Positions 7,346-49,270 of a DNA stretch of 64,000 nt are shown here, piece by piece (position 1 is the first letter of the stretch; every line of letters starts with the position of its first letter). The stretch lies in assembly GCF_964204645.1 (NCBI RefSeq), contig NC_134033.1, forward strand, positions 7,696,655 through 7,760,654. Reading direction: 5' to 3'. The notes below the pieces were generated by a model that did not search any database, was not told where the DNA came from, and was given only the letters and a program-made list of their open reading frames with translations. This stretch comes from Tubulanus polymorphus. Lineage: Eukaryota > Animalia > Nemertea. A program made the position numbers and the translations under genes.

Positions 7346-8509
7346 AATAATAATTATTATTATTAGGGTTTTCTGTTACATCACAGAAAACCCTATTGAG
7401 ATTCGCGTGTTTCTTATTATTAGGGTTTTCTGTTACATCACAGAAAACCCTATTGAGATTCGCGTGTTTCTTATTATTAATATTTTTTTCCACACATTTT
7501 TTGTCAAAAGTACATAGGCTTTTTTACATTACCGCTGTTGCCGATACAATCCGTCTGATATCATTCAGCTCAGTTCGATCTACAAATACTCCGTGCGAAT
7601 TTTGAAGAATCAACGTTACAAAAGCACTGTCGGGCCGTAAACATCGAAAATTGAGCCCCATTCAAAGAGCCGACATGTTTTTCTCGTCTTTCCGAAATCT
7701 ACCGCACGTTTCTTGTCACGTCGATTATCAATTCAAGCATAAATTAACAAATTTATTACCGAAAGATTGCACATTCTGTCGCGGTTTTTAAAAACTAATT
7801 TTAACAGTAACCCATTTTCCTCATCAAATCATATTACTGATACACAGGAAATTTACTACTTTAGATTTTAAAAGCACTGTCGAGCCGTAAACATCGACAA
7901 ATCGACGTGTGTCACTACATCGTCGTTCCGGGAATCAGCTGCGAGTTTCTCCTCATTCTGAGAATCAAATCGAGTACAAATTAATTTATTACTACCAGTG
8001 ATTTGGCTGCGGGCGTCAAGCAGTTAATTTAGCAATACCTATTTTTCTTTACCAAATTTACCGTGTTTTTACTAAGATAAATCATAAGTGTACCGGGGAG
8101 TCGTAGGCCTAAACTAAACACGCCGATGAAATATAGCGGAGAAAAGCTGTTATGTCGACGAGATATCAAAATAAAAGAATATATTACTTTATTCTGCTGC
8201 GGCCCTCTATATCAATACCATCAATACTCTATATTTCCTACAGTACATACCGATCATTGTCAAATCCACAAGGTATTTACTAATTACAAGTATATAACAC
8301 AATCCTATCCGTATGCTGGACTCATACTTGACATTCGGAGTAAGTGTTCGCTGTGGGGGAAAGGAGATCGTTCGCTGTGTCGCTTGAAGTGTTTATCGAG
8401 TTTTACGCGACCTTTAAGCTTTAGTATGGTGGCTGATAAGATAAAAAAACACGAATATGCAAATGAGGGCGACATTACGACAAAACTAAAATAACGCGAG
8501 AAAACAATG

Positions 8510-10420: not shown

Positions 10421-12086
10421 TTTCAGTCCACTTGGGACTTTAGTTATTTTGGGAAGTTTTGAAGACGCTTCAAGGTAATGTCTTGATATTTGGTGTATAC
10501 ATGTATCTACCCTAGACACATCGTCAGCCAAAAAACTGGCCCTGTCAGATTCAAGATGGCCGAATGGCAGCCATTGTTGTTCGCCAAAATCAGCACTTTT
10601 TAAACATTTTCGAATTTTTCGTGGGAAATTTTGAAGACGCTTTGATCAATTACCTTGATCTTTCGTTTATATTCGAATCTACCAAAGGCCCATCAGCATA
10701 AGAAAATTGGGTCGATCTGACTCAAGATGGCCGTCCTATGACCTTTTTAGTGCCCAAAAATGTCGAATTTGGCCAGAATTCTAGGTCCTGTAGCTTCCTA
10801 CTGGTTTGCCATTTCTCATTGCAATTGCTGATGGGTATTCTTTTGAGAGGGATGTTTTATACCTGGGACAGGTATTTTTGATCAGCCAATTATGACGCAA
10901 TTGGCGGCCATCTTGGTGTCATCAGTACTCATTCGTAGGTGGGAAAAAGTTTTTCCACATTTAATTGATACCTAAGCATATTGTGTTATTATATTCAATT
11001 GGAAAGTTGTAGCCCATAACGTGTTCTATGATTTTGGTGAGTTTCAAGGTCATTGGTTTTTGTATGTGGCCATCAGGGGGCGTTGAATAATACAATAACT
11101 TAGTATCGCTATATTATATTTGTACCAAGGCATATTTTGTTACCATGATCAATTGCAAAGTTGTAGTTCATGACATCGTCTGATTGTGGTGAGTTTTTAA
11201 GCACATTAGTTATTCCATATAGTCACCAGGGGGCGTTGAATAGTAGAAAAGCTTAGTTTTTCCTTATTAGATCGGTACCTAGGCATAGTTTGTTACCATG
11301 ATCAATTGCAAAGTTGTAGTTCATGACATCTTCTATGCTTGTGGTGAGTTTTTAAGGACATTAGTTATTCCATATAGTCACCAGGGGGCGTTGAATACTA
11401 GAATGGCTTAGTATTTCCTTATTAGATTGGTACCTAGGCATATTTTGTTACTATGATGAATTGCAAATTTGTATTTCATGACATGTACTACGATTGTGGT
11501 GAGTTTTAAGGTCATTGGATTTTGCATATGGTCACCAGGGGGCGTTGAATAGTAGAAAAGCTTAGTATTTCCTTATTAGATTGGTACCTAGGCATAGTTT
11601 GTTACCATGATCAATTGCAAAGTTGTAGTTCATGACATCGTCTATGATTGTGGTGAGTTTTTAAGGACATTAGTTATTCCATATAATCACCAGGGGGCGT
11701 TGAATAGTAGAATGGCTTAGTATTTCCTTATTAGATTGGTACCTAGGCATATTTTGTTACTATGATCAATTGCAAAAATGTATTTCATGACATGTACTAC
11801 GATTGTGGTGAGTTTTAAGGTCATTGGGTTTGGCATATGGTCACCAGGTGGCGTTGAATAGTAGAATAACTTAGTATTTTTATATTAAATTGGTAACGAG
11901 GCATATTTTGTTATCACAATCAATTACAAAATCATAGATGCTCACATGTTCTATGATTGTGGTGGGTTTCAAGGTCATTGGTTTTTGTATATGGTCACTA
12001 GAGGGCGTTATGTATTGAAATTGTTAGATTGTTGAGCATTTGAAACCACTTCCCAAGTGAGCATGGTGTCCCTGGACCCCTAGTTT
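10419..12086 (+). mobile_element. HINE family B nested in the 31-bp array, with internal ~155-bp tandem repeats
   Basis: Starts TTTTCAGTCCACTTGGGA and ends CCCAAGTGAGCATGGTGTCCCTGGACCCCTAGTTT (subterminal inverted repeat plus 3' stem), in T-rich context. The copy at 29608 keeps the (GTCC)n tract typical of DINE-1/HINE elements. Confidence 0.7.
10960..12010 (+). repeat. ~155-bp tandem repeat (about 7 units)
   Basis: CAGGGGGCG anchor recurs at 11074, 11227, 11382, 11536, 11691, 11845 (spacing 153-155). Confidence 0.9.
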
Positions 12087-12676
12087 TGTTTTGTCGCACG
12101 CAACAATTCAATATTTTGTTTTTGTCGTCCGTGACAATTCATTATTTTGGTTTTATCGCCCGTGACAATTCAATATTTTGGTTTTAACGCCCGCAACAAT
12201 TCATTATTGTTGTTTTTTCTCCCGCGACAATTCATTATTTTTGTTTTGTCGCCCGTGACTATTCAATATTTTGGTTTTGTCAAATCGCGACAATTAATAA
12301 TTTTGGTTTTGTCGCCCGTGGTTTTGTCGGAACATTAAGGTTTTTGGTCGAACAGTGTGTTAAGGTCGTTTTGGAAATTTACTCGGTCTGGTATATTTTG
12401 GATTACTGTGTATGTCATTTGTCAGGACATTAAACAGAAGACGACTTAGGATACTACCTTGCGTGACTCCACTAGTTAGACCGTCTCATTCCAAGATGAG
12501 GCGTTCCGTTGATTTCGGTTACAAGTTTCCGTTCAAAGATAACTGCTGAGCCATTTGGGCGACCTATCATTGATACTGTTTCCTAATAGCCTGTTTAGTA
12601 ATGGCTGATGTTGAGCCTTATCAAATGCTTTGTCGAAATCCACCGTTGAACAGGATTCTAACTCTTACGAAAATGG

Positions 12677-13070
12677 TACACGTGTAATTGTAAATGAAAA
12701 TACACGTGTATTTCAAGTACACGTGTAAAATTTGCCCAATTTTACACGTGTACTTTATCCCAATTACACGTGTACTTCATCCAAATTACACGTGTATTAC
12801 ACGTGTACTTCATCCAAATTACACGTGTATTACACGTGTACTTCATCCAAATTACACGTGTACTTCATCCTAATTACACGTGTACTTCATCCAAATTACA
12901 CGTGTACTTCATCCTAATTACATGTGTACTTCATCCAAATTACACGTGTATTACACGTGTACTTCATCCTTATTACACGTGTTTTTCATCTTGTATTACA
13001 CGTGTACTTTATCCTAATTACACGTGTATTTCATCCAATATTACACGTGTCTTACACGCTAAATACATGT
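12677..13070. repeat. 22-bp minisatellite built on the palindrome TACACGTGTA
   Basis: Unit CTTCATCCAAATTACACGTGTA; about 18 CACGTG cores. Confidence 0.9.
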
Positions 13071-13560
13071 ATCTTCAATTGCCATTTTTTGTTGAATTCA
13101 AATCAAACCACCATGTGAGGAAATCTCCTTAATCCATGTGCTGTTTAGAATGAACATACTCAAGAGATTCACATTTTCCATACTAACTGATTTATTCATC
13201 TTCATAAATTTTATAAATCTTTGAGTTATGGCATGTCTTATGTTGGCCTCTTTCGCACCCTTCTCCTTTCGACATTGTTCTGAAATGATAACCATTTGAA
13301 AAAATTAAGCAAAAGTATACAATGATTTCTTTACCCGGATAAATAATTCAACTTCAGCTGCTTGGGATGATGATTGAATTCTGTAGCTTTTTCTAAGATT
13401 CTTCTGCATATAACAGTTAACAGTTTTTGCACTCTTCAATGACTTGATTTTAAGCCATATGGTGAAATGCTTGACAATCTGGAAATTTCAATGTTCAACG
13501 CCACCTGATGAAAAACAAGGGGTCTAGGGACACCATGCCCATATGGTTTCGAATGCTAAC

Positions 13561-14904
13561 CTAGTATCGCTATATTATATTTGTACCAAGGCATATTTTG
13601 TTACCATGATCAATGGCAAAGTTGTAGTTCATGACATCGTCTATGATTGTGGTGAGTTTTTAAGGACATTAGTTATTCCATATAGTCACCAGGGGGCGTT
13701 GAATAGTAGAAAAGCTTAGTTTTTCCTTATTAGATTGGTACCTAGGCATAGTTTGTTACCATGATCCATTGCAAAGTTGAAGTTCATGACATCGTCTATG
13801 ATTGTGGTGAGTTTTTGAGGAGATTAGTTATTCCATATAGTCACCAGGGGGCGCTGAATAGTAGAATGGCTTAGTATTTCCTTATTAGATTGGTACCTAG
13901 GCATATTTTGTTACTATGATCAATTGCAAAGTTGTATTTCATGACATGTACTACGATTGTGGTGAGTTTTAAGGTCATTGGGTATTGCATATGGTCACCA
14001 GGGGGCGTTGAATAGTAGAATAACTTAGTATTTCCATATTAAATTGGTAACGAGGCATATTTTGTTATCACAATCAATTACAAAATCATAGCTGCTCACA
14101 TGTTCTATGATTGTGGTGGGTTTCAAGGTCATTGGTTTTTGTATATGGTCACTAGAGGGCGTTATGTATTGAAATTGTTAGATTGTTGAGCATTTGAAAC
14201 CACTGCCCAAGTGAGCATGGTGTCTCTGGACCCCTAGTTTGGTTTTGTCGCCCGCGACAATTCATTATTTTGGTTTTGTCGCACGCAACAATTCAATAGT
14301 TTGTTTTTGTCGTCCGCGACAATTCATTATTTTGGTTTTATCGCCCGCAACAATTCAATATTTTGGTTTTAACGCCCGCGACAATTCATTATTGTGGTTT
14401 TATCACCCGCGACAATTCATTATTTTGGTTTTATCGCCCGCGACAATTAATTATTTTTGTTTTGTCGCCCGTGACAATTCAATATTTTGGTTTTGTCACC
14501 CGCGACAATTCATTATTTTGGTTTTGTCGCCCGTGGTTTTGTCGGAACATTAAGTTTTTGGTCGATCAGTGTGTTAAGGTTGTTTTGGAAATTTACTCGG
14601 TCTGGTATATTTTGGATTACTGTGTATGTCATTTGTCAGGACGACTTAGGATACTACCTTGCGTGACTCCACTAGTTAGACCGTCTCATTCCAAGATGAG
14701 GCGTTCCGTTGATTTCGGTTACAAGTGTCCGTTCAGAGATAACTGCTGTGCCATTTGGGCGACCTATCATTGATACTGTTTCCTAATAGCCTGTTCAGTA
14801 ATGGCTGATGTTGAGCCTTATCAAATGCTTTGTTGAAATCCACCGTTGAACAGGATTCTAAGACTTTGCAGAAAACCCATTATCGCTGCTTTGCAGCTAT
14901 ATTT
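13561..14904 (+). mobile_element. Second copy of the 3' part of the A+B composite, with intact HINE-A 3' end
   Basis: Parallels ~11100-12660 and ends GCAGAAAACCC-ATTATC-GCTGC-TTT-GCAGC-TATATTT (subTIR, stem-loop, T-run). Confidence 0.75.
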
Positions 14905-15639
14905 AGGGTTTTCTTTTATTTTATTGAAAACCCTATTGATATCCGCGTGATTATTATTATTATTATTTTCTTCCACACTATTTTTACCAAAAGAACATGG
15001 GCTTTGTTACCTTACTGCTGTTTCATATACAATCCATATAATATCGTTCAGCTCACTCTACAAATAGCCCGCGTGTTTTTTCACGAATCATCGTTACAAA
15101 AGCGCTGTCGGGCCGTAAACATCGAAAATTTAGCCCCATTCAATGGGACGACATGTTTTTCGAGTCGTCATCCCGAAATCAACCCGCAGGCCGACTGTCA
15201 CTTCGATTATCAATTCAAGTATAAATGAACTAATTTATTGCCGCAACTTCAAATTCAGTCGCGGTCTTCAAACAGTGATTTTAACAATAGCCCATTTTCC
15301 TCATCAAATCATATTACCGATACACTGGAAATTTACTACTTTAGATTTTAAAAGCACTGTCGAGCCGTAAACATCGACGAATCGACGTGTGTTACTACAT
15401 CGTCGTTCCGGGGATCAGCTGCGAGTTTCTCCTCATCATGAGAATCAAATCGAGTACAAATTAATTTATTACTACCAGTGATTTGGCTGCGGGTTTCAAC
15501 GAGTTAGTATAACAATACCTATTTTTCTTTACCGAATTAACCGTGTATTTACTAAGATAAATCTTTAGTGTACCGGGGAATCGTAGGCCTAAACTAAACA
15601 CGCCGAAGAGATATAGCGGAGAAAAGCTGTTATGTCGAC
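14903..15639 (+). mobile_element. Diverged HINE-A 5' part interrupted by a Polinton
   Basis: Variant head and body homologous to 4270-4908; breaks after TATGTCGAC, where other copies continue with GAG. Confidence 0.7.
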
Positions 15640-18600
15640 AGTAATAGGGGTAATGGGCTTTCAGATCAAAGGTCGAACGGTCGAGCTCATTAAAAAACAA
15701 AACATTAAAAGTAATTTAAAACTATAATATATTTTCATAACCGTGTGCATTTTATATTATAACTAAATATTTATTCTAAGATATCAATAATTTAAAAAGC
15801 ATATTGATTTATTTACAATACACAAATTCATATAATCAAATGTATTCAAATAATAATTATTCTATTATTCAACTGAAATACACACGGTTATGAAAATATA
15901 TTATAGTTTTAAATTACTTTTAATATTTGTTTTTAATGAACTCGACCATTCAACCTTTAACCTGAAAGCCCATTACCCCTATTACTCTTAAAATGAATAA
16001 CATTTAAAAGTGTAAGCTCTTATAGAATAGATATATAGATATATTTACAACGTTATTTCAATATTCATATTTGTATGAGTTAGAATTTTGAACATTAAAA
16101 GTGTTAGTAAAGTGTGATTGAAATAATGCATGATATAAATCATTGAACTTCTAAAATCAATTTTAATAAAAAATTTTGTATTAAAATGGAAGCAAATAAG
16201 TACTACTGCCCAACATGTAATATCAATATAGATAAATCCCAAAAAGCAAGACACAATAAAACTAAAACACATTTAGAGAATAAATTAAAATTAGAATATA
16301 AAGATGATATATTAGAAACTAAATTGGATGAATTAAAGAATGAAAAAGAAACATACAAATGTGATACATGTAATCAATCATTCAGTGATAAAAGATATTA
16401 TAAAGAACATTTAAAATCTACAAGTCATATTAGAAATAAGAATAATGATATTTTAGGTGAAGATTATTTTGATAAAGATAATGATAAGAAACAGAAGACA
16501 ATTAAAAGCATAAGAAATAAATTAAACAATAAAAGACCATACATGGAAGATGTACGAAAATATATTAATTCATTAGATAATAAAAAAGATATAGAGATAA
16601 CCGAAGCATTTAAAAGTGATATTGGCCCAGCAGCTATCGAGTTTAAATTTCATAAAGGAAAAACGTTAGAAGAAAATAAAAAACATTTAGAAAATATGAA
16701 AGAAATAATAAAAATAATAACTGATGTTGAATACCCTAAAATTAGTATATCAGTTAAAGTAAAGTTTATAAAATCTGAAGATAAACCAATATATAATATA
16801 AATTCTCATTCACAACATATTATATATAAACAACATATAGATGATAAATTAGATAAATGTTATAATGAAGTAAAAACTAAAATAGAAGAGAAATATTTTG
16901 AAGGATCTGGTTTAATATTTGATGAAATAATATTTATGACTTTACATGTTTATAACACAAAATATAATAAGTTAACTAAATCAAAACCAATTGATGAAAA
17001 TAATGTATCATATTATAAAGAACCAGATATTGAAGCATCGAGTTATATCAAACTACCATTTAAAACTAATGCTGTAATAAATGTACAAAATGAAGATGAT
17101 AAATGTTTTCTATGGGTTATAATAAGTTGTTTACATCCTGCAACTTAAAATATTTGTAGATTAACTCATTATAAACCATTTGAAAATAATTATAAGATAG
17201 ATAAGTATCCTGTTATAATTAAAAACATCCCAAAAATAGAAAGAGATAATAATATAAAGATAAATGTGTTTGATTTAATCAAATTACCAAATACAAAAGG
17301 TAACAATATAAAACATTATACATTAGAACCTTTATACCTATCAAAAGATTATGATTCAAACAATGTTATAGATATACTATATTATGAGAATCATTATATG
17401 TGGATTAAACAAATCGATTTATTTTTTAAATCAGAAAGTGATCACCATAGAATATATCTTTGTAGAAAATGTTTACATAAATTCAGTAATGAAAGTACAT
17501 TATTAAATCATAAACAATTATGTGAAAATCATGATTATTGTAAATTAGTTTTACCAAATGAAAAAGATAAAATATTAGAATTCAAAAAATATGATTACAA
17601 AAATAAAGTACCATTTGTTATATATGGAGATTTTGAATCATTAAATAAAGAATTAACTGATCAAGATAGAAAAGAAATATATTATAAAAGAAAGAAATTT
17701 AATTCTAATGAAAATGATTTTTCAGATGAAACACCAAAAACAAATACAATTAAAAAGATTCATCAATCAGCTGCAGCTTTCGGGTTATATATTAAATCTG
17801 ATTATCCAGAACTAATTGAAAGTGAATATTATGATTATAGAAATGAAAATGTTATCAATCATTTTTGTGACTTATTAATTGAATATGAAATAAGATTTAG
17901 TAAATTATTGAATACAAATAAAGAAATAATTATGACAGAAGAAGATAAAGAAGAATTTGTGTTTTCAGATAAATGTTATTATTGTGAAAAGATATTTAAT
18001 TTTAAAGATAAAAAAGTAAGAGACCATGATCATTTGAATGGAAAGTTTAGAGGCGCTGCACATGAGAATTGTAACTTACAAGCTAAGAAAATTAATTTTG
18101 TACCAGTTATATTTCATAATCTATCAGGATATGATGCACATTTATTCATCAAACAGTTATGTCATAAAATAGAAGAAATTAATAATGAAATAGAAAGATT
18201 AAATTCAAATAGATCAAAAGATAAAATACCAACTTATAAATTTAAAATGTTAGCTAAAACATCTGAGAATTATATATCATTCCAATTTGGTTGCCTAGAA
18301 TTTATAGATTCCTATAGATTTTTAAATAGTTCATTAGATAACTTATCAAAATCATTAGTTGATGATGAATTAAAAATATTAAAGCAACATTACCCAAATA
18401 ATGATGATTTTCAATTAATGAGATATAAAGGAGCAATTCCATATTCTTTCTATAAAAATCATATTGATTTTAACATAACTGAATTATTGAAAGAACAATT
18501 CTATGATGAATTAAAAAATGAATATGTTAAAGATGAAGTCTATAATAGAACATTGAATATTTGGAATCATTTCAAAATAGAAAATCATGGGCAATTAGTA

Positions 18601-20135
18601 GATTCATATCTAAAATCAGATGTATTATTATTAACCGATATATTCGAAAGGTTTAGAGATGTAAACCTAAAATATTTCAATATTGATCCTTGTCATTGTT
18701 ATTCTAGCCCAGGTTTAACATGGGATTGTGGTTTAAAATTTACAGATATAAAAATGGATTTGTTAACAAATATAGATCAATTATTATTATTTGAAAAATC
18801 TATAAGAGGAGGAGTTTCAGGTGTATTAGGGGATAGATATTTCAATGTAAATGATAACCCTGGATATAAGTTATTATATATAGATGCAAATAATTTGTAT
18901 GGTTGGGCAATGATGGAACCACAACCTTATGGAGTATTTGAATTAACTGAAGTTTTACAGAATGAAAATAGTGATAAATTTGATTGGAAGAAAAGAATCC
19001 TAGATATTGCAGATGATTCAGATACTGGTTACTTCTTTGTTGTAGATTTAGAATATCCTGAAGATAAAAAATTTAAATCTAGAAATATAGCTTACTGTCC
19101 CGAACATAAAACTGTAACGCATGAAGAATTATCAAGTTATCAAATAAGAATTAAACCCGAAAATCATATTCATACAGAAAAGTTAATGGTAACTCGAAGA
19201 AGATAAATATAATTATGTAGTACATTATAGAATGTTAAAGTTTTATCTAAAATAAGGAATGGTTCTAAAAAAAGTACATAGATATATTTCATTCAGTCAA
19301 TCTAAGTGGTTAGAAAAATATATAGATTTTAACACCAAACAGAGAACTGAAGCTAAAACTGATTTCGAAAAAGATTTCTTCAAGTTAATGAATAATGCAT
19401 TCTATGGTAAGACTTGTGAAAATATTAGAAATAGAAATGATATTGAGTTAGTCAGTAATGGTAAAAGAATTAGACATTTACAATCATATCCTAAGTTCAT
19501 TGGTAACAGAATATTTGATGAAAATTTAGCTGCAGTTAAAATGAGAAGAACATCAATGAAATTTAATAAACCAATCTATGTTGGCGCTTCAGTTTTAGAA
19601 TTATCAAAATTACTAATGTATGAATTCTATTATAATGTATTACAACCTCATTTTGGAGAAAAGCATATAGAAATCTTATATTTTGATACTGACAGTTACA
19701 TATTAAAGATAAAAACTGATAACATAACTAATGATTTAAAAACATTAAAACATCATTTTGATTTTAGTAATTATCCTAAAGATCATGAATTGTTTAGCAA
19801 TGATAATAAAAAAAGTTCCCGGTAAATTCAAAGATGAATTAGGTGGTGAAGAAATGATAGAGTTCATAGGTATTAGATCTAAAATGTATTCATATAAAAC
19901 TAAAGAACATGAAGCTAAAAAGTTAAAAGGAATAACCAAAAGTGTAGTAGAAAAGAATATTCATTTCAAAGATTACATCAATTGTATATTCAATGAAGAA
20001 GTTAGAAAACATAAGATGAGATGTTTAAGATCTGAAGATCATGAAATATTTATTGAAGAAATTGAAAAGATAAGTCTAAACCCATTTGATGATAAAAGAT
20101 ATATTTTAGATGATGGAATTCATACAGTTGCTTAT
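15640..20135 (+). mobile_element. Truncated Polinton/Maverick (subfamily 1): terminus plus pPolB
   Basis: Starts AGTAATAGGGG, has a terminal fold-back (15640-15986), then a pPolB highly similar to 43425-47456; cut at 20135 by a MITE. Confidence 0.92.
16186..20135 (+). pseudogene. polB: Protein-primed family B DNA polymerase, disrupted
   Basis: Motifs YGDFES, FHNLSGYD, YIDANNLYGWAM, KLMNNAFYGK, YFDTDS; endonuclease-VII-like RDHDHLNGKFRGAAH. In-frame TAA at 17146, frameshifts near 19197 and 19810, a further stop near 19254. Confidence 0.93.
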
Positions 20136-21300
20136 CGGTGTTGTCATATCGCGGAAAGACGGAATCGCGGAATTTTCCAAAAACGCGGAATTTCTTCATT
20201 TTTACTTTAAATAGTAAACGGGTTTTTTCCCACGGGGATACCCACTGTCGGACAGGGCACCGGACCGATCGATGCAACGACTAAGGTTCGAATCCCATTA
20301 TTTGCAGGCAATTTTATATGGAATCATTATATTACGATACCGTTGACTGGCTGCCACCTGTAGAAGAAGTCAGAATCAAGTGAGGTGAAAGAGACCAGGC
20401 ACCTAATGTCTATTTCTACTAGGCAAACTTCGGCTATCGAAGTTCATCGACTTTTTGAGAACTTCAGAAACGAATATTATCAGATAAATATTGAGCACGT
20501 TCGCGGTGTCGGACTGTAGTTGTAGATGGTTGCAAACACGAAATCCTACGACCAAACAAGTACCGGTTCAAATTCCTATAAAATCATTATAATCATTGAA
20601 ATCATTATAATTTTACGGCCGTCCAGTACCGGTACGAATAAGATTCTTTTGATCCAAATAATCAGCATAGGAACATATATGTTATAGCAGTCACAAAGTA
20701 AACATTAAAAAAACGAAACCATTTTATAATCTTTCATATCATTTAATTCTAAAAGATAAACCACATTCTTCGCTTATAACAACAATGTAGACACACAACA
20801 CGCATGAACAATCCTAAACCAGAATGAAATATACATAATGTCTATTTATTTTCGTCTGACATCGATCCAGTTCCACAGTTGTGAGTTAACTCTGAGTCAC
20901 TTAGAATCAATTCATTTCCAATGTTTTAAATCCAGAGACCAGAGTCAAATCTTAACTCGGAAGTGAGTCCTTGAGAATGACCCATGGTGTCACAAATCCT
21001 ACGTTTACGTACCATCGATTTGTATTCATTCAGTTAATGCAGCGATACTCTGTATCACTGAATTCGCAAAGCACGTATTGCCTAGGTTCTCCATTATTTG
21101 GAAAAGTATCGTTAAGTTGTTGACTAGCGATATAATAAATTATCAAATACTAATTCCCAGTGTTGAAAAGCTGGGTCCGGTGCCGTCTGACAGTGGGTAT
21201 CCCCGTGGGAAAACCCGTTTACTATTTATAGTAAAAATGAAGAAATTCCGCGTTTTTTGAAAATTCCGCGATTCCGTCTTTCCGCGATATGACAACACCG
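20136..21300. mobile_element. Non-autonomous TIR DNA transposon (MITE-like), ~130-bp TIRs, no TSD
   Basis: CGGTGTTGTCATATCGCGGAAAGACGG... at 20136 is the reverse complement of ...CCGTCTTTCCGCGATATGACAACACCG ending 21300. Confidence 0.85.
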
Positions 21301-21313: not shown

Positions 21314-21878
21314 AGATCAAAGGTCGAACGGTCTAGCTCATTAAAAACAAAATATTAAAAGTAATTTAAAACTATAATATATTTTCATAACCGTGTGCAT
21401 TTTATATTATATCTAAATATTTAATCTAAGATATTAATAATTTAAATTTTAAAAGCATATTGTATTAAATCAATTGGTCGCTCCGCTTCGCTACCGCTCC
21501 ACTCCGCGACCAATTGATTTATTTACAATACACAAATTCATAATCAAATATATTTTAATAATAATAATTATTCTATTATTCAACTGAAATACACACGGTT
21601 ATGAAAATATATTATAGTTTTAAATTACTTTTAATATTTGTTTTTAATGAACTCGACCATTCAACCTTTAACCTGAAAGCCCATTACCCCTATTACTCTT
21701 AAAATAATCATATACATGAATAACATTTAAATTGATAGATTATTCAATATAAAAGTGTGAGCTCTTATAGAATAGATATATAGATATATTTACAACATTA
21801 TTTCAATATTCATATTTGTATGAGTTAGATTTTTAAAAACATTAAAAGTGTTAGTAAAGTGTGATTGAAATAATGCAT
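21314..21878 (+). mobile_element. Polinton subfamily-1 terminal fragment
   Basis: Direct homolog of ~15663-16130; lacks the outer ~23 bp but keeps a central GC-rich stem-loop absent from the 15640 copy. Confidence 0.85.
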
Positions 21879-29179: not shown

Positions 29180-29823
29180 TGGTTTTGTCGCCCGCGACAA
29201 TTCATTAGTTTGGTTTTATCGCCCACGACAATTCATTACTTTGGTTTTATCTCCAGCGACAATTCATTATTTTGGTTTTGTCGCCCGCCACAATTCTTCT
29301 TTTTGGTTTTGACGCCCGCGACAATTCAATATTTTGGTTTTGTCCCCCGCGACAATTCATTATTGTGGTTTTGTCGCCCGAGACATTTTCATTATTTTGG
29401 TTTTATCGTCCGCGACAATTCATTATTTTGGTTTTGTCGCACGTGACAATTCAATATTTTGTTTTTGTCGCCCGTGACAATTCATTATTTTGGTTTTATC
29501 GCCCGCGACAATTCATTAGTTTGGTTTTGTCGCCCGCGACAATTCAATATTTTGGTTTTATCACCCGCGACAATTCATTAGTTTGGTTTTGTCGCCCGCG
29601 ACAATTCTTTTTCAGTCCACTTGGGACTTTAGTCTCAGTGGGCTATTGCGTTCACTTTTCGTCCGTCCGTCCGTCCATAGACGGAATCCAGTTATTTTGG
29701 GAAGTTTTGAATACGCTTCAAGGTAATGTCTTGATATCAGGTTTATACATGTATCTACCCTAGACACATCGTCAGCCCAAAAACTGGCCCTGTCAGATTC
29801 AAGATGGCCGTCTGGCAGCCATT

Positions 29824-30205
29824 AGTAATAGGGATAATAGGCTTTCATACCAAAGGTCGAAGGGTCGAGCTCGTAAAAAATGAAAATAACAATAATTTAC
29901 AGTTGAATTAGTCGCGCACACTCCTAATTCAACTGTAAATTATTATTATTTTCATTTTTTACTCACTCGCCCCTTCAACCTTTGATACGAAAGCCTATTA
30001 TCCCTATTACTCTTAAAATATTCACATAAATGAATAACATTTAAATCATTGAACTTCTAAAATCAATTTTAATAAAAAATATAGTATTAAAATGGAAGCA
30101 AATAAGTACTACTGCCCAACATGTAATATCGATATAGATAAATCCCAAAAAGCAAGACACAATAAAACTAGAACACATTTAGAGAATAAATTGAAACTAG
30201 AATAT
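29824..30205 (+). repeat. Left TIR (outer 188 bp is a fold-back palindrome)
   Basis: Reverse complement of 47343-47725 with 4 substitutions and one 1-bp indel by eye. Confidence 0.95.
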
Positions 30206-30343: not shown

Positions 30344-30422
30344 AAAAGGATGACGTTGGTCGAAGAAATGGAAGAGGATTCTAAAATTATTAACCAATTT
30401 AGTAAAAAAATACGTATAATAA

Positions 30423-31088
30423 ATGGAACCAGAACAACCACAAACTATCAATATTACAAATAACACTGGCGTTATAAACATATATTACAAGAAGTGTTCT
30501 AAATGTGAATTAGATAAATCATTAACAGAATTTAGTAAGCGTAAGATTAGCAAAGATGGTTTTCAATATTGTTGTAAAACTTGTACTAAACTATATACCA
30601 AACAATATCGAGAAGATCATAGAGAATCTTATAATGATTATATGACAGAATACATGAGAGAAAGATATCAAACAGATCTTAATTTTAGATTGAAACAATG
30701 CTTAAGGACTAGATTAACACAATTATTCAACAAAGAAACACATTCAGAAACACTATCTAATCTATTGGGTTGTTCAGATGAATTTCTCAAATCATGGATA
30801 ATATATCAATTCGACGATAAAATGAATATAGATAATTATGGAGAATACTTTCATATTGATCATGTGTTGCCGATTTCTAAATTTGACATGAATGATGAAT
30901 ACAATAAAAAACTTATTTGGAATTGGAAGAATCTAAGACCTTTAGAAAAGAAGGAAAACATTATTAAATCCAATAAACTAGATTTACAGTTATATTTAGA
31001 TCAACTGGATAAAACAAAGACATTTGTTGAATTATGGAATAGTATTTCACAGAATCAACCGCATTCTGAGGTTTTGATCAGTGGTTAG
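30423..31088 (+). CDS. HNH endonuclease with N-terminal CxxC...CxxC zinc finger
   Basis: CSKC...CKTC, then LLGCS...NYGEYFHIDHVLPISKF...WKNLRPLEKKENIIKSNK. Confidence 0.8.
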   Translation: MEPEQPQTINITNNTGVINIYYKKCSKCELDKSLTEFSKRKISKDGFQYCCKTCTKLYTKQYREDHRESYNDYMTEYMRERYQTDLNFRLKQCLRTRLTQLFNKETHSETLSNLLGCSDEFLKSWIIYQFDDKMNIDNYGEYFHIDHVLPISKFDMNDEYNKKLIWNWKNLRPLEKKENIIKSNKLDLQLYLDQLDKTKTFVELWNSISQNQPHSEVLISG

Positions 31089-33961: not shown

Positions 33962-33964
33962 AAT

Positions 33965-35053
33965 ATGATGAAAAAAGAACAATATTTAAGAGATTTATAT
34001 TATAACCCAGAAAGTGAAGTTTCATATTCAAGTGTTTCGGAATTATGGGATAAAATTAAATCTGATAATAGCAATATAAAATATAGTGAATTAAAATCAT
34101 GGTTACAAAATCAACCCACATATCAAATTCATAAAAAGATGGATTAAAAATATTTAACAAGAAAAGTAATGGTTTCATATATCGATCAACAATGGCAAGC
34201 AGATTTAATTGACATGAAGAACTTAGAAGAATATAACAAAGGATATTTTTGGATACTAAATGTTATAGATATATTCAGTAGATACGCATGGAGTATCCCG
34301 ATTAAAAATAAAACTGGTATAGAAGTAACAAATGCTTTCAAATTAATATTTAAAGAAGCTATCCCAGATAAAATACAATTTGATGAAGGTAAAGAATTTT
34401 ATAACAAACATTTTAAAAAACTATTAACTGATAACGATGTAGAATATTTTTCAACACATTCAGATAAAAAAGCATCTGTTATAGAAAGATTTAATAAAAC
34501 ATTGAAAACTAGAATGTGGAAATATTTCACCGCTAATGAAACATATAAATATATCGATGTGTTAGATGATTTAGTTAAAGGTTATAATAATTCTAAACAT
34601 AGTTCTATAAATATGAAACCTATACAAGCTAGAAAAGAAGAAAATTCAGAAATAGTTTGGAATAATTTATATGGAGCATTTGTTACACATGATTTCGGTG
34701 AACCTAAATTTAAAATAGGACAACACGTTAGAATTTCTAAATATCGAAAAACATTTTATAAAGGTTATACCCCTAATTTTACAGAAGAAATATTCAAGAT
34801 TAAAAAGATAATATTAACTAAACCATTTGTTTATAAATTGTTTGATTTAAAAGATGAAGAAATATTAGGTTATTTCTATGAACAAGAATTATCATTAGTA
34901 CCAAATCCAGATGAAATAGAATACAAAATAGAAAAAGTATTGAAAACAAAAACTCTTAAAGGAAAAAAGTATTCTTTGGTGAAATATAAAGGATATGATG
35001 ATAAATTTAATGAATGGATTTCATCTAGTAAAATTAAAAGAATAAATGAATAA
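33965..35053 (+). pseudogene. int: Retroviral-like (rve) integrase with C-terminal chromodomain; one in-frame stop
   Basis: WQADLID / FDEGKEF / IERFNKTLK DDE motifs; YKIEKVL...VKYKGY...EWI chromodomain. ORFs 33965 and 34169 are in frame across TAA 34145-34147. Confidence 0.93.
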
Positions 35054-35657
35054 AGATTTATTTATATTTGAACCACATAATATATTAGTTACTGGAGTTA
35101 CAAATTGTGGTAAAACACATTTCATATTAGACTTGTTAGAAACTATTTATAAAAATCATTTTGATAATATAATATTATTCTGTCCTACATATGAAATGAA
35201 TAAAACATATAATAGAGATATAGTTAAGATAAAAAAGTTTATTATATTAGATCCTAAAACAGTAAAAGAAAATTTAGATAATTGTATAAAAATTGCATTA
35301 GATATTTATAAAGGATCAAATACATTATTCATTATAGATGATTGCGCAAATTTACATGATTCTAAAATTAGAGAAAGTGAGTTATGATATTTAGCTTTCT
35401 CTGGTAGACATTTTGGGATAACAACTTGGGTTTTAAATCAAAAATATAATTCAATTGTGAAAGATTTTAGAGAGAATATAAGATTTCTAGTTTTATTCTA
35501 CAACAAAGATAGAAAATCTATGCAACAATCATTAGAAGAAAATCAAATTATACCTACTGAATTACATGATGAATATATGAATAAATTAAAAAATAATAAA
35601 GGTTCAAAATTATTACTGAGATTACAATTTCCTTATGAATATAAATTTATAAAATAA
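35046..35657 (+). pseudogene. A32/FtsK-like DNA packaging ATPase; one in-frame stop
   Basis: Walker A GVTNCGKT, Walker B FIIDD; TGA at 35385, then YLAFSGRHFGITTWVLNQKY...REN in the same frame. Confidence 0.9.
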
Positions 35658-35679
35658 CTATTTGTATACCTATGTATTA

Positions 35680-36820: not shown

Positions 36821-38068
36821 TTAGTACATAACACTATCTAATTGTGAATTTACAATATTTATTTGCGCATCAGATATAATATAAATATGCATTTTAAAAT
36901 TTTTAATTCCTTTTTTCTTTGTCATGAATAATTGTATTCCATCTTTTGTATTTTGTAATTTTTTCCCAGAACCATGTAATGAATTATCTTCAGTTGTTCT
37001 AAAATCTAACCATAATGCATATTTATTACCGGTATAATAATCAATTTGATTAATGTTACAATTTTCAAATGATTTTACTTTTTCATTCATAAAATGTTTT
37101 TTAATTTCTACCCATTGATCAATCATTCTCATTCCTTGACAAAATATTTTATTTGCTATTCCTTCGATAGTTATTTCTACTTTTGTTATTTCAGGATTAT
37201 AATAATTGTCAACATTTATTGCGCCATTAGTATACGTTCCAATAGTAAAAAATATTAATATACCTTTAATAGATCTTCTAGGGAAGTTAATATTCTCATT
37301 TATTATTTCATCATTTGCATTAATAGTTACAGTTTTAAATTTATCAATATAATCATATAATAATGAAAATCCTTGATTGTATTGAGTTTGAATTATACTT
37401 GAAATATTTTCATCAGTTACTGTATCATATTCTAAACATATATTCGATAATTTATAACTCATATCTTTATTAACGCTAGATAATACAATTTCATTTACAG
37501 GAGCAAATGTTATCTCGAATATAATATCTTCTTGAATTGCGTATTTATATAAAGGTGCATTATTATTTATCAATTCAAAGTCTAATGGAATTTTATATTT
37601 GCTTCCATATATACTTTTTATCAATTTATCTACATCATTTGTTAATATTGCGCTATTAGCTTCTGATCTAAATTTATTTTGGTTTTCTGATTGGATTCCT
37701 TGAAATATCATATTATTTCTATTTTCTTTAGTTAACCATAAATCTTTATAATGCATAAATAAATTATAATCATCTAATGAGAAAACTGTTTCTGGTCCAA
37801 TCTTTATTGTTAACTTTTTAATCAAATATCTTCCAACATTATCAACGACATAATTATTATTATTACCGATTACTTTTATATCAGCTGATAAATAAATACT
37901 GTTTGGAACGTAAAAAGTATTTTGTGTTAATCGAGGGATTCTAACGTATAAAGTTTCATCGGGATTAATATTTGAAGGGTTATGAGTAATTATATGATGT
38001 GATCTTTCTGCTTTAATAGCATTAGATATTCTATGATTCTTAGAAGGATTGATATAACTCCCACTCAT
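36821..38068 (-). CDS. Major capsid protein (double jelly-roll), intact
   Basis: 415 aa, beta-rich; NPSNINPDETLYVRIP, YKIPLDF, LEYDTV, RRSIKGIL and ALWLDFRT resemble Polinton MCPs; size and context fit. Confidence 0.8.
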   Translation of the reverse strand: MSGSYINPSKNHRISNAIKAERSHHIITHNPSNINPDETLYVRIPRLTQNTFYVPNSIYLSADIKVIGNNNNYVVDNVGRYLIKKLTIKIGPETVFSLDDYNLFMHYKDLWLTKENRNNMIFQGIQSENQNKFRSEANSAILTNDVDKLIKSIYGSKYKIPLDFELINNNAPLYKYAIQEDIIFEITFAPVNEIVLSSVNKDMSYKLSNICLEYDTVTDENISSIIQTQYNQGFSLLYDYIDKFKTVTINANDEIINENINFPRRSIKGILIFFTIGTYTNGAINVDNYYNPEITKVEITIEGIANKIFCQGMRMIDQWVEIKKHFMNEKVKSFENCNINQIDYYTGNKYALWLDFRTTEDNSLHGSGKKLQNTKDGIQLFMTKKKGIKNFKMHIYIISDAQINIVNSQLDSVMY

Positions 38069-43424: not shown

Positions 43425-46400
43425 TTAACACGTTAGAATCCTTTTCATAATCTCATTTTCTTTTGTTTCTTCTCTTTTGAATTTTATATATTCATCTAAA
43501 TTGCAACCATAGGCGACTGTGTGGATTCCATCATCTAAAATATATCATTTATCATCAAATGGGTTTAGACTTATCTTCTCTATCTCTTCAATATACATTT
43601 CATGATCTTCAGATCTTAAACATTTCATTTTATGTTTTCTAACTTCTTCATTAAATATACAATTGATGTAATCTTTGAAATGAATATTCTTTTCTACTAC
43701 ACTTTTAGTTATTCCTTTTAACTTTTTAGCTTCATGTTCTTTAGTTTTATATGAATACATTTTAGATCTAATACCTATGAACTCTATCATTTCTTCACCA
43801 CCTAATTCATCCTTAAACTTCCCAGGAACTTTTTTATTATCATTGCTAAACAATTCATGATTTTTTGGATAGTTACTAAAATCAAAATGATGATTTAATA
43901 TTTTTAAATCATCAGTTATGTTATCAGTTTTTATCTTTAATATATAACTGTCAGTATCAAAATATAATATTTCAATGTGTTTTTCCCCAAAATGGGGTTG
44001 CAATACATTATAATAGAATTCATACATCAATAGCTTTGAAATTTCTAAAACTGCAGCTCCAACATAAATAGGTTTATTGAACTTCATAGAAGTTCTTTTT
44101 AATTTAACTGCAGCTAAATTTTCATCGAATATTCTATTACCTATGAATTTCGGATACGATTGTAAATGCCTTATCCTTTTACCATTACTAACTAACTCAA
44201 TATCATTTCTATTTCTTATGTTTTCACAAGTCTTACCATAGAACGCATTGTTCATTAGTTTAAAGTAATCCTTCTCAAAATCAGTTTTAGCTTCAGTTCT
44301 CTGTGTAGTATTAAAATCTATATATTTTTCTAACCACTTAGATTGATTAAATGAAATATATCTATGTACTTTTTTTAATATCATTCCTTGATTCAAATAG
44401 AATTTTAACATTCTATAATGTACTACATAATTATATTTATCTTCTTGAGTTACCATTAACTTTTCAGTATGAATATGATTATCGGGTTTAATTCTTTTTT
44501 GATAATTTGATAATTCTTCATGTTTAACAATTTTATGTTCGGGACAATATGCTAGATTTCTAGATTTAAATTTAATATTTTCAGGGTATTCTAAATCTAC
44601 AACAAAGAAGTAACCAATATCTGAATCATCTGCAATATCTAGGATTCTTTTCTTCCAATCAAATTTATCAATTTGTAAAACTTCAGTTATTTCAAACATC
44701 CCATAAGGTTGTGGTTCCATCATTGCCCAACCATAAAGATTATTTGCATCTATGTATAATAATTTATATCCAGGATTATCATTTACATTGAAATATCTAT
44801 CACCCAATACACCTGAAACACCTCCTCTTATAGATTTTTCAAATAATAGTAATTGATCTATATTTGTTAACAAATCCATTTTTATATTTGTAAATTTTAA
44901 TCCACAATCCCATGTTAATCCTGGTGATGAATAACAATGACAAAGATCAATGTTAAAATATTTTAGGTTTACATCTCTAAACCTTTCGAATATATCAGTT
45001 AATAATAATACATCTGATTTTAAATATAAATCTACTAATTGCCCATGATTTTCTATTTTGAAATGATTCCAAATATTCAATGTTCTATTATATACTTCAT
45101 CTTTAACATATTCATTTTTTAATTCATCATAGAATTGTTCTTTTAATAATTCAGTTATTTTAAAATCATTATGATTTTTATAGAAAGAATATGGAATTGC
45201 ACCTTTATATCTCATTAATTTAAAATCATCATAATTTGGGTAATATTCTTCTAATATCTTTAATTCATCATCAATTAATGATTTTGATAAGTTATCTAAT
45301 GAACTATTTAAAAATCTATATGAATCTATAAATCTTAAACAACCAAATTGAAATGATATATAATTCTCAGATGTTTTAGCTAACATTCTAAATTTATAAG
45401 TTGGTATTTTATCTTTTGATTAATTTGAATTTAATATTTCTATTTCATTATTAATTTCTTCTATTTTATGACACAGTTGTTTAATGAATAAATGCGCGTC
45501 ATACCCCGATAAATTGTGAAATATAATGGGGACAAAATTTACTTTTTTAGCTTGCAAATTACAATTCTCATGTGCAGCGCCTCTAAATTTACCATTCAAA
45601 TGATCATGGTCTCTTACTTTTTTATCTTTATAATTAAATATCTTTTCACAATAATAACATTTATCTGCAAACGCAAATACTTCTTTATCTTCTTCTGTCA
45701 TTATAATTTCTATATTTCTATTCAATAATTTACTAAATCTTATTTCATATTCAATTAATAAGTCACAAAAATGATTAATAACATTTTCATTTCTATACTG
45801 ATAATATTCACTTTCAATTAGTTCTGGATAATCAGATTTAATATATAACCCGAAAGCAGCAGCTGATTGATGAATCTTTTTAATAGTATTTGTTTTTGGT
45901 GGTTCTTCTGAATAATCACTTTCATTAGAATTTAATTTCTTTCTTTTATAATATATATCTTTTCTATCTTTATCTGTTAATTCTTTATTTAATGATTCAA
46001 AATCTCCATATATTACAAATGGTATTTTATTTTTGTAATCATATTTTTTGAATTCTAATATTTTATCCTTTTCATTTGGTAAAACTAATTTACAATAATC
46101 ATGATTATCACATAGTTGTTTATGATTTAATAATGTACTTTCATTACTAAATTTATGTAAACATTTTCTACATAGATATATTTTATTATGGTGATCACTT
46201 TCTGTTCTAAAAAATAAATCTATTTGTTTAATCCACATATAATGATTCTCATAATATAGTATATCTATAACATCATTTGAATCATAATCTTTTGATAGAT
46301 ATAAAGGTTCTAATGTATAATGTTTAATATTATTTCCTTTTGTATTTGGTAATTTAATTAAATCAAATACATTTATTTTAAGATTATTATCTCTTTCTAT

Positions 46401-47456
46401 TTTTGGAATATTTTTAATTCTAACAGGATACTTATCTATCTTATAATTATTTTCAAATTGTTTATAATGAGTTAATCTAAAACTATGTGTAATATCTTCT
46501 GTTGGATGTAAACAACTTATTATAGCCCATATAAAACATTTATTATCAAAATTTTGTATATTTATTACACCATTAGTTTTAAATGGTAGTTTAATATAAC
46601 TTGTTCCATTTATACTATCATCTTTATAATATGATAAATTATTTTCATCAATTGGTTTTGATTTTGTTAACTTATTATATTTTGTGTTATAAACATGTAA
46701 AGTTATAAATATTATCTCATCAAATATTAAACCAGATCCTTCAAAATATTTCTCTTCTATTTTAGTTTTTACTTCATTATAACATTTATTTAATTTATCA
46801 TCTATATGTTGTTTAGATATAATATGTTGTGAATGAGAATTTATATTATATATTGGTTTATCTTCAGATTTTATAAATTTAACTTTAACTGATATACTAA
46901 TTTTTGGATATTCTACGTTTGTAATTATTTTTATTATTTCTTTCATATTTTCTAAATGTTTTTTATTTTCTTCTATTGTTTTTCCTTTATGAAATTTAAA
47001 CTCGATAGCTGCTGGACCAATATCACTTTTAAATGCTTCGGTTATCTCTATATCTTTTTTATTATCTAATGAATTAATATAATTTCTTACATCTTCCATG
47101 TATGGTCTTTTATTGTTTAATTTATTTTTTATTCTTTTAATTGTCTTCTGTTTCTTATCGTTATCATTATCAAAATAATCTTCACCTAAAATATCATTAT
47201 TCTTATTTCTAATATGACTTATAGATTTTAAATGTTCTTTATAATATCTTTTATCACTGAATGATTGATTACATGTATCACATTTGTATGTTTCTTTTTC
47301 ATTCTTTAATTCTTCTAATTTAGTTTCTAATATATCATCCTTATATTCTAGTTTCAATTTATTCTCTAAATGTGTTATAGTTTTATTGTGTCTTGCTTTT
47401 TGGGATTTATCTATATCTATATTACATGTTGGGCAGTAGTACTTATTTGCTTCCAT
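43425..47456 (-). pseudogene. polB: Protein-primed family B DNA polymerase (1343 codons) with two in-frame stops
   Basis: All exo/pol motifs present. TAA at 45420-45422 and TGA at 43545-43547 replace Arg codons of the 16186 copy; the frame continues to TAA at 43425. Confidence 0.95.
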
Positions 47457-47725
47457 TTTAATACTATATTTTTTATTAAAATTGATTTTAGAAGTTCAAT
47501 GATTTAAATGTTATTCATTTATGTGAATATTTTAAGAGTAATAGGGATAATAGGCTTTCGTATCAAAGGTTGAAGGGTCGAGTGAGTAAAAAATGAAAAT
47601 AATAATAATTTACAGTTGAATTAGGAGTGTGCGCGACTAATTCAACTGTAAATTATTGTTATTTTCATTTTTTTACGAGCTCGACCCTTCGACCTTTGGT
47701 ATGAAAGCCTGTTATCCCTATTACT
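47343..47725 (-). repeat. Right TIR (47537-47725 fold-back palindrome)
   Basis: Inverted copy of 29824-30205. Confidence 0.95.
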
Positions 47726-49270
47726 GCCATTGTTGTTTGCCAAAATCAGCACTTTTTAAACATTTTCGAAGTTTTCGTGGGAAATTTTGAAGACGCTTTG
47801 ATCAATTACCCTGATCTTTCGTTTATATTTGAATCTGCCAAAGGCCCATCAGCATAAGAAAATTGGGTCGATCTGACTCAAGATGGCCGTCCTATGACCT
47901 TTTTAGTGCCCAAAAATGTCAATTTTGGCCAGAATTCTAGGTCCTGTAGCTTCCTACTGGTTTGCCATTTTCATTGCAATTGCTGATAGGTATTCTTTAG
48001 AGAGGGGTGTTTAATACCTGGGACAGGTATTTTTGATCAGCCAATTATGACGCAATTGGCGGCCATCTTGGTGTCATCAGTACTCATTCGTAGGTGGGAA
48101 AAAGTTTTTCCACATTAAATTTATACCTAAGCATATTGTGTTACTATATTCAATTGGAAAGTTGTAGCCCATAACGTGTTCTATGATTGTGGCGAGTTTC
48201 AAGGTCATTGGTTTTTGTATGTGGCCATCAGGGGGCATTGAATAATTCAACAACTTAGTATTGCTATATTATATTTGTACCAAGGCATATTTTGATACCA
48301 TGATCGCTTGCAAAGTTGTAGTTCATGACATCGTCTACGATTGTGGTGAGTTTTTAAGGACATTAGTTATTCCATATAGTCACCAGGGGGCGTTGAATAG
48401 TAGAATGACTTAGTATTTCCTTATTAGATTGGTACCTAGGCATATTTTGTTACTATGATCAATTGCAAAGTTGTATTTCATGACATGTACTACGATTGTG
48501 GTGAGTTTTAAGGTCATTGGGTTTTGCATATGGTCACTAGGGGGCGTTGAATAGTAGAATAACTTAGTATTTCCATATTAAATTGGTAACGAGGCATATT
48601 TTGTTATCACAATCAATTACAAAATCATAGCTGCTCACATGTTCTATGATTGTGGTGGGTTTCAAGGTCATTGGTTTTTGTATATGGTCACTAGAGGGCG
48701 TTATGTATTGAAATTGTTAGATTGTTGAGCATTTGAAACCACTGCCCAAGTGAGCATGGTGTCCCTGGACCCCTAGTTTGGTTTTGTCGCCCGCGACAAT
48801 TCATTATTTTGGTTTTGTCGCACGCAACAATTCAATATTTTGTTTTTGTCACCCGCGACAATTCATAATTTTGGTATTGTCACCCGTGGTTTTGTCGGAA
48901 CATTAAGGTTTTTGGTCAAACAGCGTGTTAAGGTCGTTTTGGAAATTTACTCGGTCTGGTATATTTTGGATTACTGTGTATGTCATTTGTCAGGACATTA
49001 AACAGAAGACGACTTAGGATACTACCTTGCGTGACTCCACCAGTTAGACCGTCTCATTCCAAGATGAGGCGTCCCGTTGATTTCGGTTACAAGTTTCCGT
49101 TCAGAGATAACTCCTGAGCCATTTGGGCGACCTATCATTGATACTGTTTCCTAATAGCCTGTTTAGTAATGGCTGATGTTGAGCCTCATCAAATGCTTTG
49201 TTGAAATCCACCGTTGAACAGGATTCTAAGACTGTGCAGAAAACCCGTTATCGCTGCTTTGCAGCTATAT

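Follow-up and report, generated by a model that had tools for sequence, protein, structure and literature searches.

The closest described systems to the elements considered here are the Polintons, or Mavericks, of the adintovirus type (Polintoviricetes; PMC8097293, bioRxiv 2024.03.18.585575), whose exit from the chromosome and replication have so far only been modelled. We analyzed a 64,000-nucleotide stretch of the genome of the nemertean Tubulanus polymorphus (NCBI RefSeq assembly GCF_964204645.1, contig NC_134033.1, positions 7,696,655 to 7,760,654 of the forward strand; hereafter the window, whose own numbering is used below), which contains several copies of one Polinton family. The full-length copy resembles Polintons in its length of 17.9 kb, 382-bp inverted ends, 6-bp target site duplication (TSD), AGT-type end, gene set and inward-pointing genes, but here each terminal repeat opens with an imperfect hairpin of 90-113 bp that carries a one-strand mismatch code. 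The words hairpin and palindrome are absent from the main text of two surveys (PMC8097293, bioRxiv 2023.08.22.554363), and our literature search found neither terminal fold-backs in animal Polintons encoding the protein-primed polymerase pPolB nor strand-specific mismatches, although the founding papers of 2006-2007 or Repbase may hold an earlier remark. We conclude that the terminal fold-back is a real, conserved, strand-specific structure in an otherwise ordinary Polinton family.

Parvoviruses replicate by a rolling-hairpin mechanism from terminal hairpins, and resolution of the type known from adeno-associated virus gives equimolar flip and flop forms. The Tubulanus ends are similar in that a 3'-terminal fold-back with a structured tip lies flush with the end, but they belong to a duplex element with a predicted terminal protein (TP), show no equimolar flip-flop, and are accompanied by no Rep/HUH family in a Pfam scan of 22 open reading frames (ORFs) that left short or broken ORFs aside. 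Vaccinia telomeres (PMC8956199) likewise keep structure over sequence and retain mismatches, but they are covalently closed, occur as flip and flop, and have mismatches that serve packaging without the strand polarity found here, where only integrated copies were seen. In typical Streptomyces telomeres the folded 3' strand that serves TP priming contains sheared G.A pairs (PMC4513846, in part). Shared with that system are the protein-primed copying of a folded 3' strand proposed below, G.A and GNA-loop motifs (here recognized by sequence) and a terminal sequence that pairs with an internal inverted copy; the Streptomyces ends differ in having short packed palindromes, a 300-nt overhang produced from an internal origin, and the proteins Tap and Tpg (no such family in the 22 ORFs), and there is no homology, Polintons encoding pPolB and integrating. 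Most similar in layout are the endogenous virophages of Halocafeteria seosinensis and Polinton-like viruses of subtype 4, in which palindromes lie within terminal repeats, adjoining the target duplication as here, and for which hairpin priming was proposed (bioRxiv 10.64898/2026.07.28.741278). These palindromes, 52 nt long in the example figured, come from a protist host and mostly from elements that do not encode pPolB, whereas the Tubulanus family has an intact-looking protein-priming module (TP, vOTU); the section on them describes no test of strand bias or orientation, and its supplements may describe mismatches.

The structure studied first, fold-back A (15640-15986), forms the end that lies next to pPolB in a truncated Polinton, copy A. 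The broken pPolB gene of this copy extends to about 20136, where it is cut by a 1.16-kb insertion, and the body of the copy is 89-94% identical to the full-length sister (43504-47509). The features of copy A and of the neighboring copy D are the following.

15640..15752, forward strand: outer arm of fold-back A; begins at the element terminus with 5'-AGTAAT, preceded by unlike flanks (2491 reads)
15753..15875, forward strand: loop of fold-back A; compared with copy D it lacks the 54-nt GC-rich tip, with the break at a 4-nt repeat (15803-15806)
15876..15986, forward strand: inner arm of fold-back A, an inverted copy of the terminus
15987..16131, forward strand: remainder of the A-type terminal repeat, common to copy D (blastn); reads diverge at 16128-16131
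16186..20136, forward strand: broken pPolB of copy A in four ORF pieces (zinc fingers, TP-like region with Ser codon at 16906, endonuclease VII-like domain, polymerase)
20136..21300, no strand assigned: 1.16-kb insertion truncating copy A, with inverted ends of about 131 bp
21314..21878, forward strand: copy D, a second A-type end without the outer 23 nt; 7/7 stem mismatches of G-type on the 3'-terminal strand
21463..21516, reverse strand: GC-rich tip (54 nt) on the axis of fold-back D, whose 3'-terminal strand carries two mini-hairpin motifs of the form GCGNAGC

Copy D is probably the non-pPolB end. An origin of its GC-rich tip as an inserted micro-element is unlikely, the tip being centered on the axis of the hairpin and present in most reads. 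The insertion at 20136-21300 is single-copy and joins the truncated pPolB of copy A to the Polinton end D, which has the same direction; it probably represents a non-autonomous DNA transposon located where a rearrangement took place. Copy A itself lies in a high-copy host repeat (15540-15639, depth about 4400 in the reads of run X6, introduced below), uninterrupted copies of the site being found at 4903 and 8154.

The arms of fold-back A measure 113 nt (outer) and 111 nt (inner) and form a stem with 104 Watson-Crick pairs and two 1-nt bulges, interrupted by 7 substitutions at stem positions 26, 28, 35, 39, 47, 64 and 109. Each of the seven substitutions pairs G with T when the bottom, 3'-terminal strand folds, and opposes A to C when the top strand does (p 0.008 for the one-strand bias). 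An initial annotation of this sequence had described a Polinton terminus with arms of about 112 bp and just this distribution of substitutions; our alignment agrees on each point, the two bulges being additional, and position 15640 is the true element end, with flanks before 15639/15640 that are unlike in 609+1882 reads (agreement 0.34). The foot of the stem is flush with this terminus and coincides precisely with the 3' end; pairing there is perfect, as it is over the outer 14-25 pairs in the fold-backs of this family. Strand-specific folding energies, which the annotation had suggested computing, are lower for the bottom strand (-106.2 versus -98.2 kcal/mol as DNA, z about -23, equalled by 0 of 100 shuffles), and the asymmetry is larger when the strands are folded as RNA (-178.5 versus -145.7). 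Since these energies only restate the mismatch classes, they are not independent evidence.

The full-length sister element occupies 29824-47725 (17.9 kb) with the 6-bp TSD GCCATT on both sides, and has terminal repeats of 382/383 bp, whose ends carry AGTAAT, a variant form of the (AGT)2 motif. Its ends are made up as follows.

29818..29823, forward strand: left target site duplication GCCATT, 6 bp
29824..30011, forward strand: fold-back B, left end of the full-length element (188 nt); 5 G.T and 5 G.A on the 3'-terminal strand, with two tandem GA/GA
29824..30205, forward strand: left terminal inverted repeat, 382 bp, of which 378 pairs match the right repeat
47537..47725, reverse strand: fold-back C, right end (189 nt); 6 G.T and 4 G.A on the 3'-terminal strand
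47726..47731, forward strand: right target site duplication GCCATT, 6 bp

Because each fold-back begins at the terminus, the 3'-terminal strand is the top one at C and the bottom one in the other three fold-backs (A, B and D). On the 3'-terminal strand G occupies every stem mismatch in B (10/10), C (10/10) and D (7/7). When sites shared among A, B, C and D are counted once, 17 of 17 mismatches (11 G.T, 6 G.A) have G on the 3'-terminal strand, which corresponds to a naive p of 7.6e-6 that is a little too optimistic given the linkage of two tandems; the strand-neutral mismatches that would have spoken against the annotation were thus not seen. The bias is absent from six control inverted repeats of the window (1:1, 4:9, 8:11, 2:2, 17:18 and 37:32), and the element body shows no strand bias (17:18, 37:32). 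Among the inverted repeats that served as controls are the pairs at 53216-54005 and 52467-53204, with arms of 268 and about 150 bp and strand-neutral mismatches.

Four of the G.A pairs make up two 5'-GA/5'-GA tandems, the sequence context of sheared pairs. Close to the tip, the 3'-terminal strand has such tandems in B and C, in a third subfamily known from reads, and in the distant relatives L045 and L091 (in the latter at both ends), while GCGNAGC motifs occur in D and L045. According to PMC13037366, GCGNAGC/GCGNNAGC forms extraordinarily stable DNA mini-hairpins, which are present at single-strand origins and in the N4 promoter, and the tetraloop form is far more stable as DNA than as RNA. 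The terminal fold is probably a selected DNA structure of the 3'-terminal strand. The weight of this conclusion rests on the strand-specific mismatches, including the transversion-type tandem G.A pairs, on the conserved tip and on the distant relatives; it does not rest on covariation, as template switching can mimic covariation.

Covariation is nevertheless present. Within the first 52 pairs, 14 positions vary among A, B and C, and at six of them (11, 16, 25, 39, 50 and 52) both arms change together between A and B, which bears out the claim of the initial annotation that the arms of the two subfamilies change jointly. The seven one-sided differences between A and B and one change confined to C all yield G.T or G.A on the 3' strand. 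The inner halves of the stems, said to be unrelated between subfamilies and still paired, indeed lack significant similarity (266 of 2000 shuffles reach the same score), apart from a weak match over 28 columns. Template switching can create double changes in palindrome arms without selection (PMC8794818, in part), so covariation alone is weak evidence; it leaves unexplained, however, why positions 35 and 47 remain mismatched in both subfamilies while their neighbors co-changed. No alternative letter is recorded at these two positions among the best 40 of 81 rows of the read tables (lowest share 12%), rows that appear to be ranked by share.

These tables were derived from run X6, which consists of raw genomic reads with the same species label from another study; about 12% of the run was used, and 16867 reads were placed on A and 6185 on B. 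The sequence before the terminus is heterogeneous in 2491 reads on A and 1438 on B (agreement 0.33-0.34), indicating many insertion sites. Partner sites in the two arms have similar rates of change, namely 37%/35% at 15655/15971, 44%/53% at 29834/30001, 40%/50% at 29839/29996, 38%/48% at 29899/29936, 21%/34% at 29900/29935 and 16%/24% at 29902/29933. The copies carry the fold-back in a single orientation: the sites diagnostic of equimolar flip-flop (29858/29977 and 29870-72/29963-65) are absent from the same best 40 rows, and no loose ends lie behind 30011 among the top six positions (at least 354 reads each), compared with 1438 reads before 29824.

Deletions in the reads are concentrated on the axis of the hairpin. 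Among the 12 skipping joints listed on B, 10 are centered within 4 nt of the axis, including the three largest (107, 57 and 29 reads), and the letters between these joints retain the tandem-GA tip. On A, about 984 of 1156 reads at 15803-15812 break there as a D-type tip would predict, which makes copy A a minority deletion form without the 54-nt tip; 568 loose read ends and 313 joints fall at 15803/15806. Frequent loss of the inner arm, the other outcome that would have spoken against the annotation, was not seen, the depth of the inner arm being about 0.6 of that of the outer arm on A (1117 versus 1807) and about equal near the tip of B. Separately, the joints 29859-29976 and 29870-29964 represent copies from which the whole inner stem has been deleted symmetrically, leaving a hairpin of 36-47 bp with a new loop; such copies amount to a natural deletion series defining the minimal end.

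Terminal fold-backs were also found in relatives when pPolB loci were scanned. Locus L085 has a 129-nt AGTAGT fold-back 150 nt before the pPolB start, with a mismatch ratio of 6:0 in favor of G-type and energies of -42.2 versus -33.3. L091, from genome G001, is a 19-kb element that terminates in ACACACA and has a 159-nt fold-back with a bulged stem at each end, and L045, second closest in the pPolB tree, has a decayed fold-back whose tip shows several GA steps around a GCGGAGC loop. L063 (3459-3590) has AGTAGT ends, a 4:0 ratio of G-type and a related tip motif, its terminal side being ambiguous; it is included in the total of fold-backs given below. In L085, L091 and L045 the fold-back is located upstream of pPolB. 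The pPolB proteins of these three loci are about 40% identical to that of the window and the arm sequences are unrelated beyond the first bases. The fold-back persists while sequence and stem length change, in line with the statement of the initial annotation that structure and not sequence is conserved. A scan anchored on AGTA recovered 2 of the loci (0 in three shuffles), missing L091, with its ACACACA ends, and L045. In the tree, which comprises 148 sequences with at least 300 aligned residues, elements with fold-backs are not resolved as one clade (ranks 2, 64 and 99 of 147, excluding L091; weak support).

The contig of the closest relative, L001 (83% identity), stops before the element end. 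Nothing was found in viral contigs by single-protein and terminus-pattern scans, and a pattern search of G003 gave chance matches only, its copies extending past the compared stretch so that ends were not found. Fold-backs in L097, L144, L162, L080 (250-415), L091 (6621-6788) and L068 were not counted, as they do not lie at a recognizable terminus or are strand-neutral. In L063 (2-3590) and L162 (2740-8745), pPolB lies beside an integrase followed by a fold-back of 132-184 nt; these loci are possibly compact pPolB-integrase units or end-to-end junctions. Of the loci, 69 (L081-L149) come from prokaryote genome bins that encode Polinton-like pPolB, and several, such as L085, L091 and the contigs of G003, have the appearance of host DNA of eukaryotic origin that was sorted into bins together with symbionts. 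L080 (1-700) has terminal repeats with TTAGGG runs and a 166-nt sub-terminal hairpin at one end only.

The coding content of the full-length element is typical of Polintons, with a protein-primed polymerase with TP and vOTU regions, an rve integrase, a capsid protein, an ATPase, inverted repeats, AG..CT ends and a 6-bp TSD, and the genes at both ends point inward. The genes are the following.

30423..31088, forward strand: endonuclease VII-like ORF by the left end (phrog_1035, E 3.4e-18)
34169..35053, forward strand: rve integrase with chromodomain (Pfam rve, E 2.3e-9)
35046..35387, forward strand: A32-like packaging ATPase, partial ORF (Pfam Pox_A32, E 1.5e-5)
36821..38068, reverse strand: capsid protein with a predicted double jelly-roll fold (Foldseek match of a pLDDT 62 model to the capsid of iridovirus/PBCV-1, E 1e-12)
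43545..47456, reverse strand: pPolB of the full-length element, two ORFs; TP-like, vOTU-like and endonuclease VII-like domains in the N-terminal part

The capsid protein gave no identification in PHROG or PDB sequence searches and was identified by fold comparison. For a maturation protease there was no Pfam match in the 22 ORFs and a motif scan was empty; the gene may be diverged or broken. DNA_pol_B_2 was matched in Pfam (E 1.6e-14 and 8e-12), the pPolB gene being broken in both copies of the window. A model of ORF residues 120-539 (42-row alignment, pLDDT 82) shows a four-strand, two-helix domain that resembles the little fingers of the Y family (Z 8.2) and, after it, a vOTU fold (Z 7.5); the Z values are middling, with both expected folds in the expected order, and the matches in a viral library are adintovirus and MELD polymerases. 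Of the 42 aligned sequences, 40 carry a Ser in the loop that joins helix 2 to strand 4, and all 42 have the vOTU Cys and His; L085 and L045 share these residues. A linking Ser and catalytic Cys/His are the marks of the TP and vOTU domains given in bioRxiv 2024.03.18.585575 (in part), and pPolB is thus predicted to keep both domains with their key residues. The element has two endonuclease VII-like domains, one in the stand-alone ORF and one inside pPolB. The stand-alone ORF directly follows pPolB in L001 (4079-4846) and lies by the opposite end here (30423-31088). The terminal repeat at 30093-30205 holds the pPolB start and about 37 codons, leaving a duplicated zinc-finger stub at the left end.

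We tentatively propose that the fold-back acts as a single-stranded DNA 3'-end hairpin that serves as a local origin for protein-primed synthesis. Strand displacement or excision would free a single strand, whose 3' end would fold at once; the stem would rebuild a terminal duplex within one end, offering the natural 3' end as template and shielding it, and the predicted TP-pPolB would start second-strand synthesis on the stem, displacing the inner arm. Protein priming would copy the end without inverting it, which fits the absence of flip-flop; the telomeres of Streptomyces serve as the working analogy. The same mismatches, read as C.A and C.T on the other strand, would make a 5' hairpin less stable and the extrusion of a cruciform from the integrated duplex less favorable. 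The single-stranded intermediate, folding in vivo and use as an origin are inferred. A broader reading, which we hold just as provisionally, is that a widespread subset of animal Polintons ends in a telomere hairpin formed by the 3' strand alone, which contains G.T and sheared G.A pairs, is tipped by mini-hairpins and has evolved convergently with the ends of parvoviruses and of Streptomyces chromosomes. Such a telomere would be used by pPolB/TP, possibly with the endonuclease VII-like domain, to start copying and to free the element from the chromosome.

Several observations weigh against this proposal. A panhandle between both terminal repeats of one strand is far more stable than the hairpin (-427 versus -85 kcal/mol), so that a local hairpin is thermodynamically unneeded and its advantage must be kinetic or protective. 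X6 shows no common read starts or ends on A or B of the kind expected from free molecules, and 42 of 6185 reads have strand-change joints (best 15 of 49 joints). The read tables, from which 138 rows on A and 41 on B are cut, give single-site shares and not both arms of one molecule. Sites 26, 64, 109 and 67 are polymorphic, with another letter in 29-41% of copies at the G.T sites 26, 64 and 109 of A (outer arm), and some top-strand G.T pairs are compatible with the single-site shares; rows 29942 and 29953 have no listed partner and could be top-strand G.T, the table suggesting a compensated subfamily at 29953. Copy A became fixed in a form that has no tip, and some stems are shorter. Terminal fold-backs were recovered in 4 of the 175 loci scanned, a figure that is not a frequency because most contigs stop before an element end; the complete relative L080, with AGTAGT ends, and the contig-end repeats of L174 have none. 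The stem of L091 is nearly without energy asymmetry in the model (-82.1 versus -81.7), and the decayed stem of L045 is 3:2 in mismatch type.

Of the alternatives, self-priming in the manner of parvoviruses survives best, although we consider it rather unlikely. The paired 3'-OH at the hairpin foot would prime the excised strand, and later opening would keep one orientation. The position of the 3' end at the foot of a perfectly paired stem, the parvovirus-like folded tip and the two endonuclease VII-like domains speak for such a mechanism, and it corresponds to model D for palindromic virophage ends (bioRxiv 10.64898/2026.07.28.741278, in part). In that source, however, palindromes are mainly tied to elements that do not encode pPolB, and the lack of equimolar flip-flop in X6, the conservation of the TP Ser and vOTU Cys/His, and the lack of a Rep/HUH family in the 22 ORFs scanned speak against self-priming.

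It is unlikely that the hairpin is a signal for excision or integration, formed on the single-stranded template at a host replication fork and marking the end for the integrase or the endonuclease VII-like domain. Strand-specific imperfect palindromes serve IS608-type transposases and integron attC sites in this manner, and strand-specific folding, the fixed mismatches 35 and 47, a foot flush with the host junction and an endonuclease VII-like ORF by the left end, with a further such domain inside pPolB, would all be consistent with this role. Against it, rve integrases act on duplex ends, and the endonuclease VII-like domain of pPolB is annotated in many homologues, including families in which no fold-back was seen; cleavage of the fold by either protein is putative. 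HNH or VSR nuclease domains are carried by the pPolB2 of other Polintons (bioRxiv 2023.08.22.554363, in part), which again fits such a signal. The proposed origin role, self-priming and the excision or integration signal are not mutually exclusive.

That the fold-back is a functionless by-product appears improbable and is already weakened by the mismatch data. Fold-back or template-switch replication would make and homogenize the inverted copy, template switching being able to create and repair perfect stems (PMC8794818, in part), and deamination of one strand (C to T, A to G) would give the G.T bias; 3 of the 11 G.T sites are in CpG context, the tip and inner stem can be lost, and many relatives have no fold-back. 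But deamination gives only G.T, and 6 of the 17 mismatches are G.A. Tandem GA/GA recurs near the tip in lineages at about 40% pPolB identity, positions 35 and 47 escaped homogenization though their neighbors co-changed, the element body lacks the bias, and the strand displaced longest at an end would be the 5'-terminal one, opposite to the bias. An RNA hairpin with G.U pairs in a bottom-strand transcript, for instance for termination or silencing, is very improbable, as the genes at both ends point inward with none ending in the hairpin, the GCGNAGC tips are DNA-type motifs and the fold is flush with a DNA terminus, even if G.U and G.A pairs are stable in RNA too and the asymmetry is larger there; a transcript-end hairpin of the giant-virus type is likewise rejected, no gene ending at the fold-back.

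If the proposed origin role is correct, the fold-back would be the first cis-acting origin structure defined for the replication of Polintons, and its sequence would directly attest an intermediate that is single-stranded. The terminal sequence tells which strand folds, that the fold is of DNA nature and that it does not flip, and therefore provides short substrates for first biochemical tests of origin and excision, which can separate protein priming from hairpin self-priming. The fold-back also offers a sequence-independent mark for locating Polinton ends, and it extends the palindromic ends reported this year for protist virophages, mostly without pPolB, to pPolB elements of animals. Elsewhere in the window (5136-14172, 26500-28000 and 48100-48700), a larger module, itself repeated several times, contains arrays whose units measure 31 bp, 155 bp and 11/22 bp.

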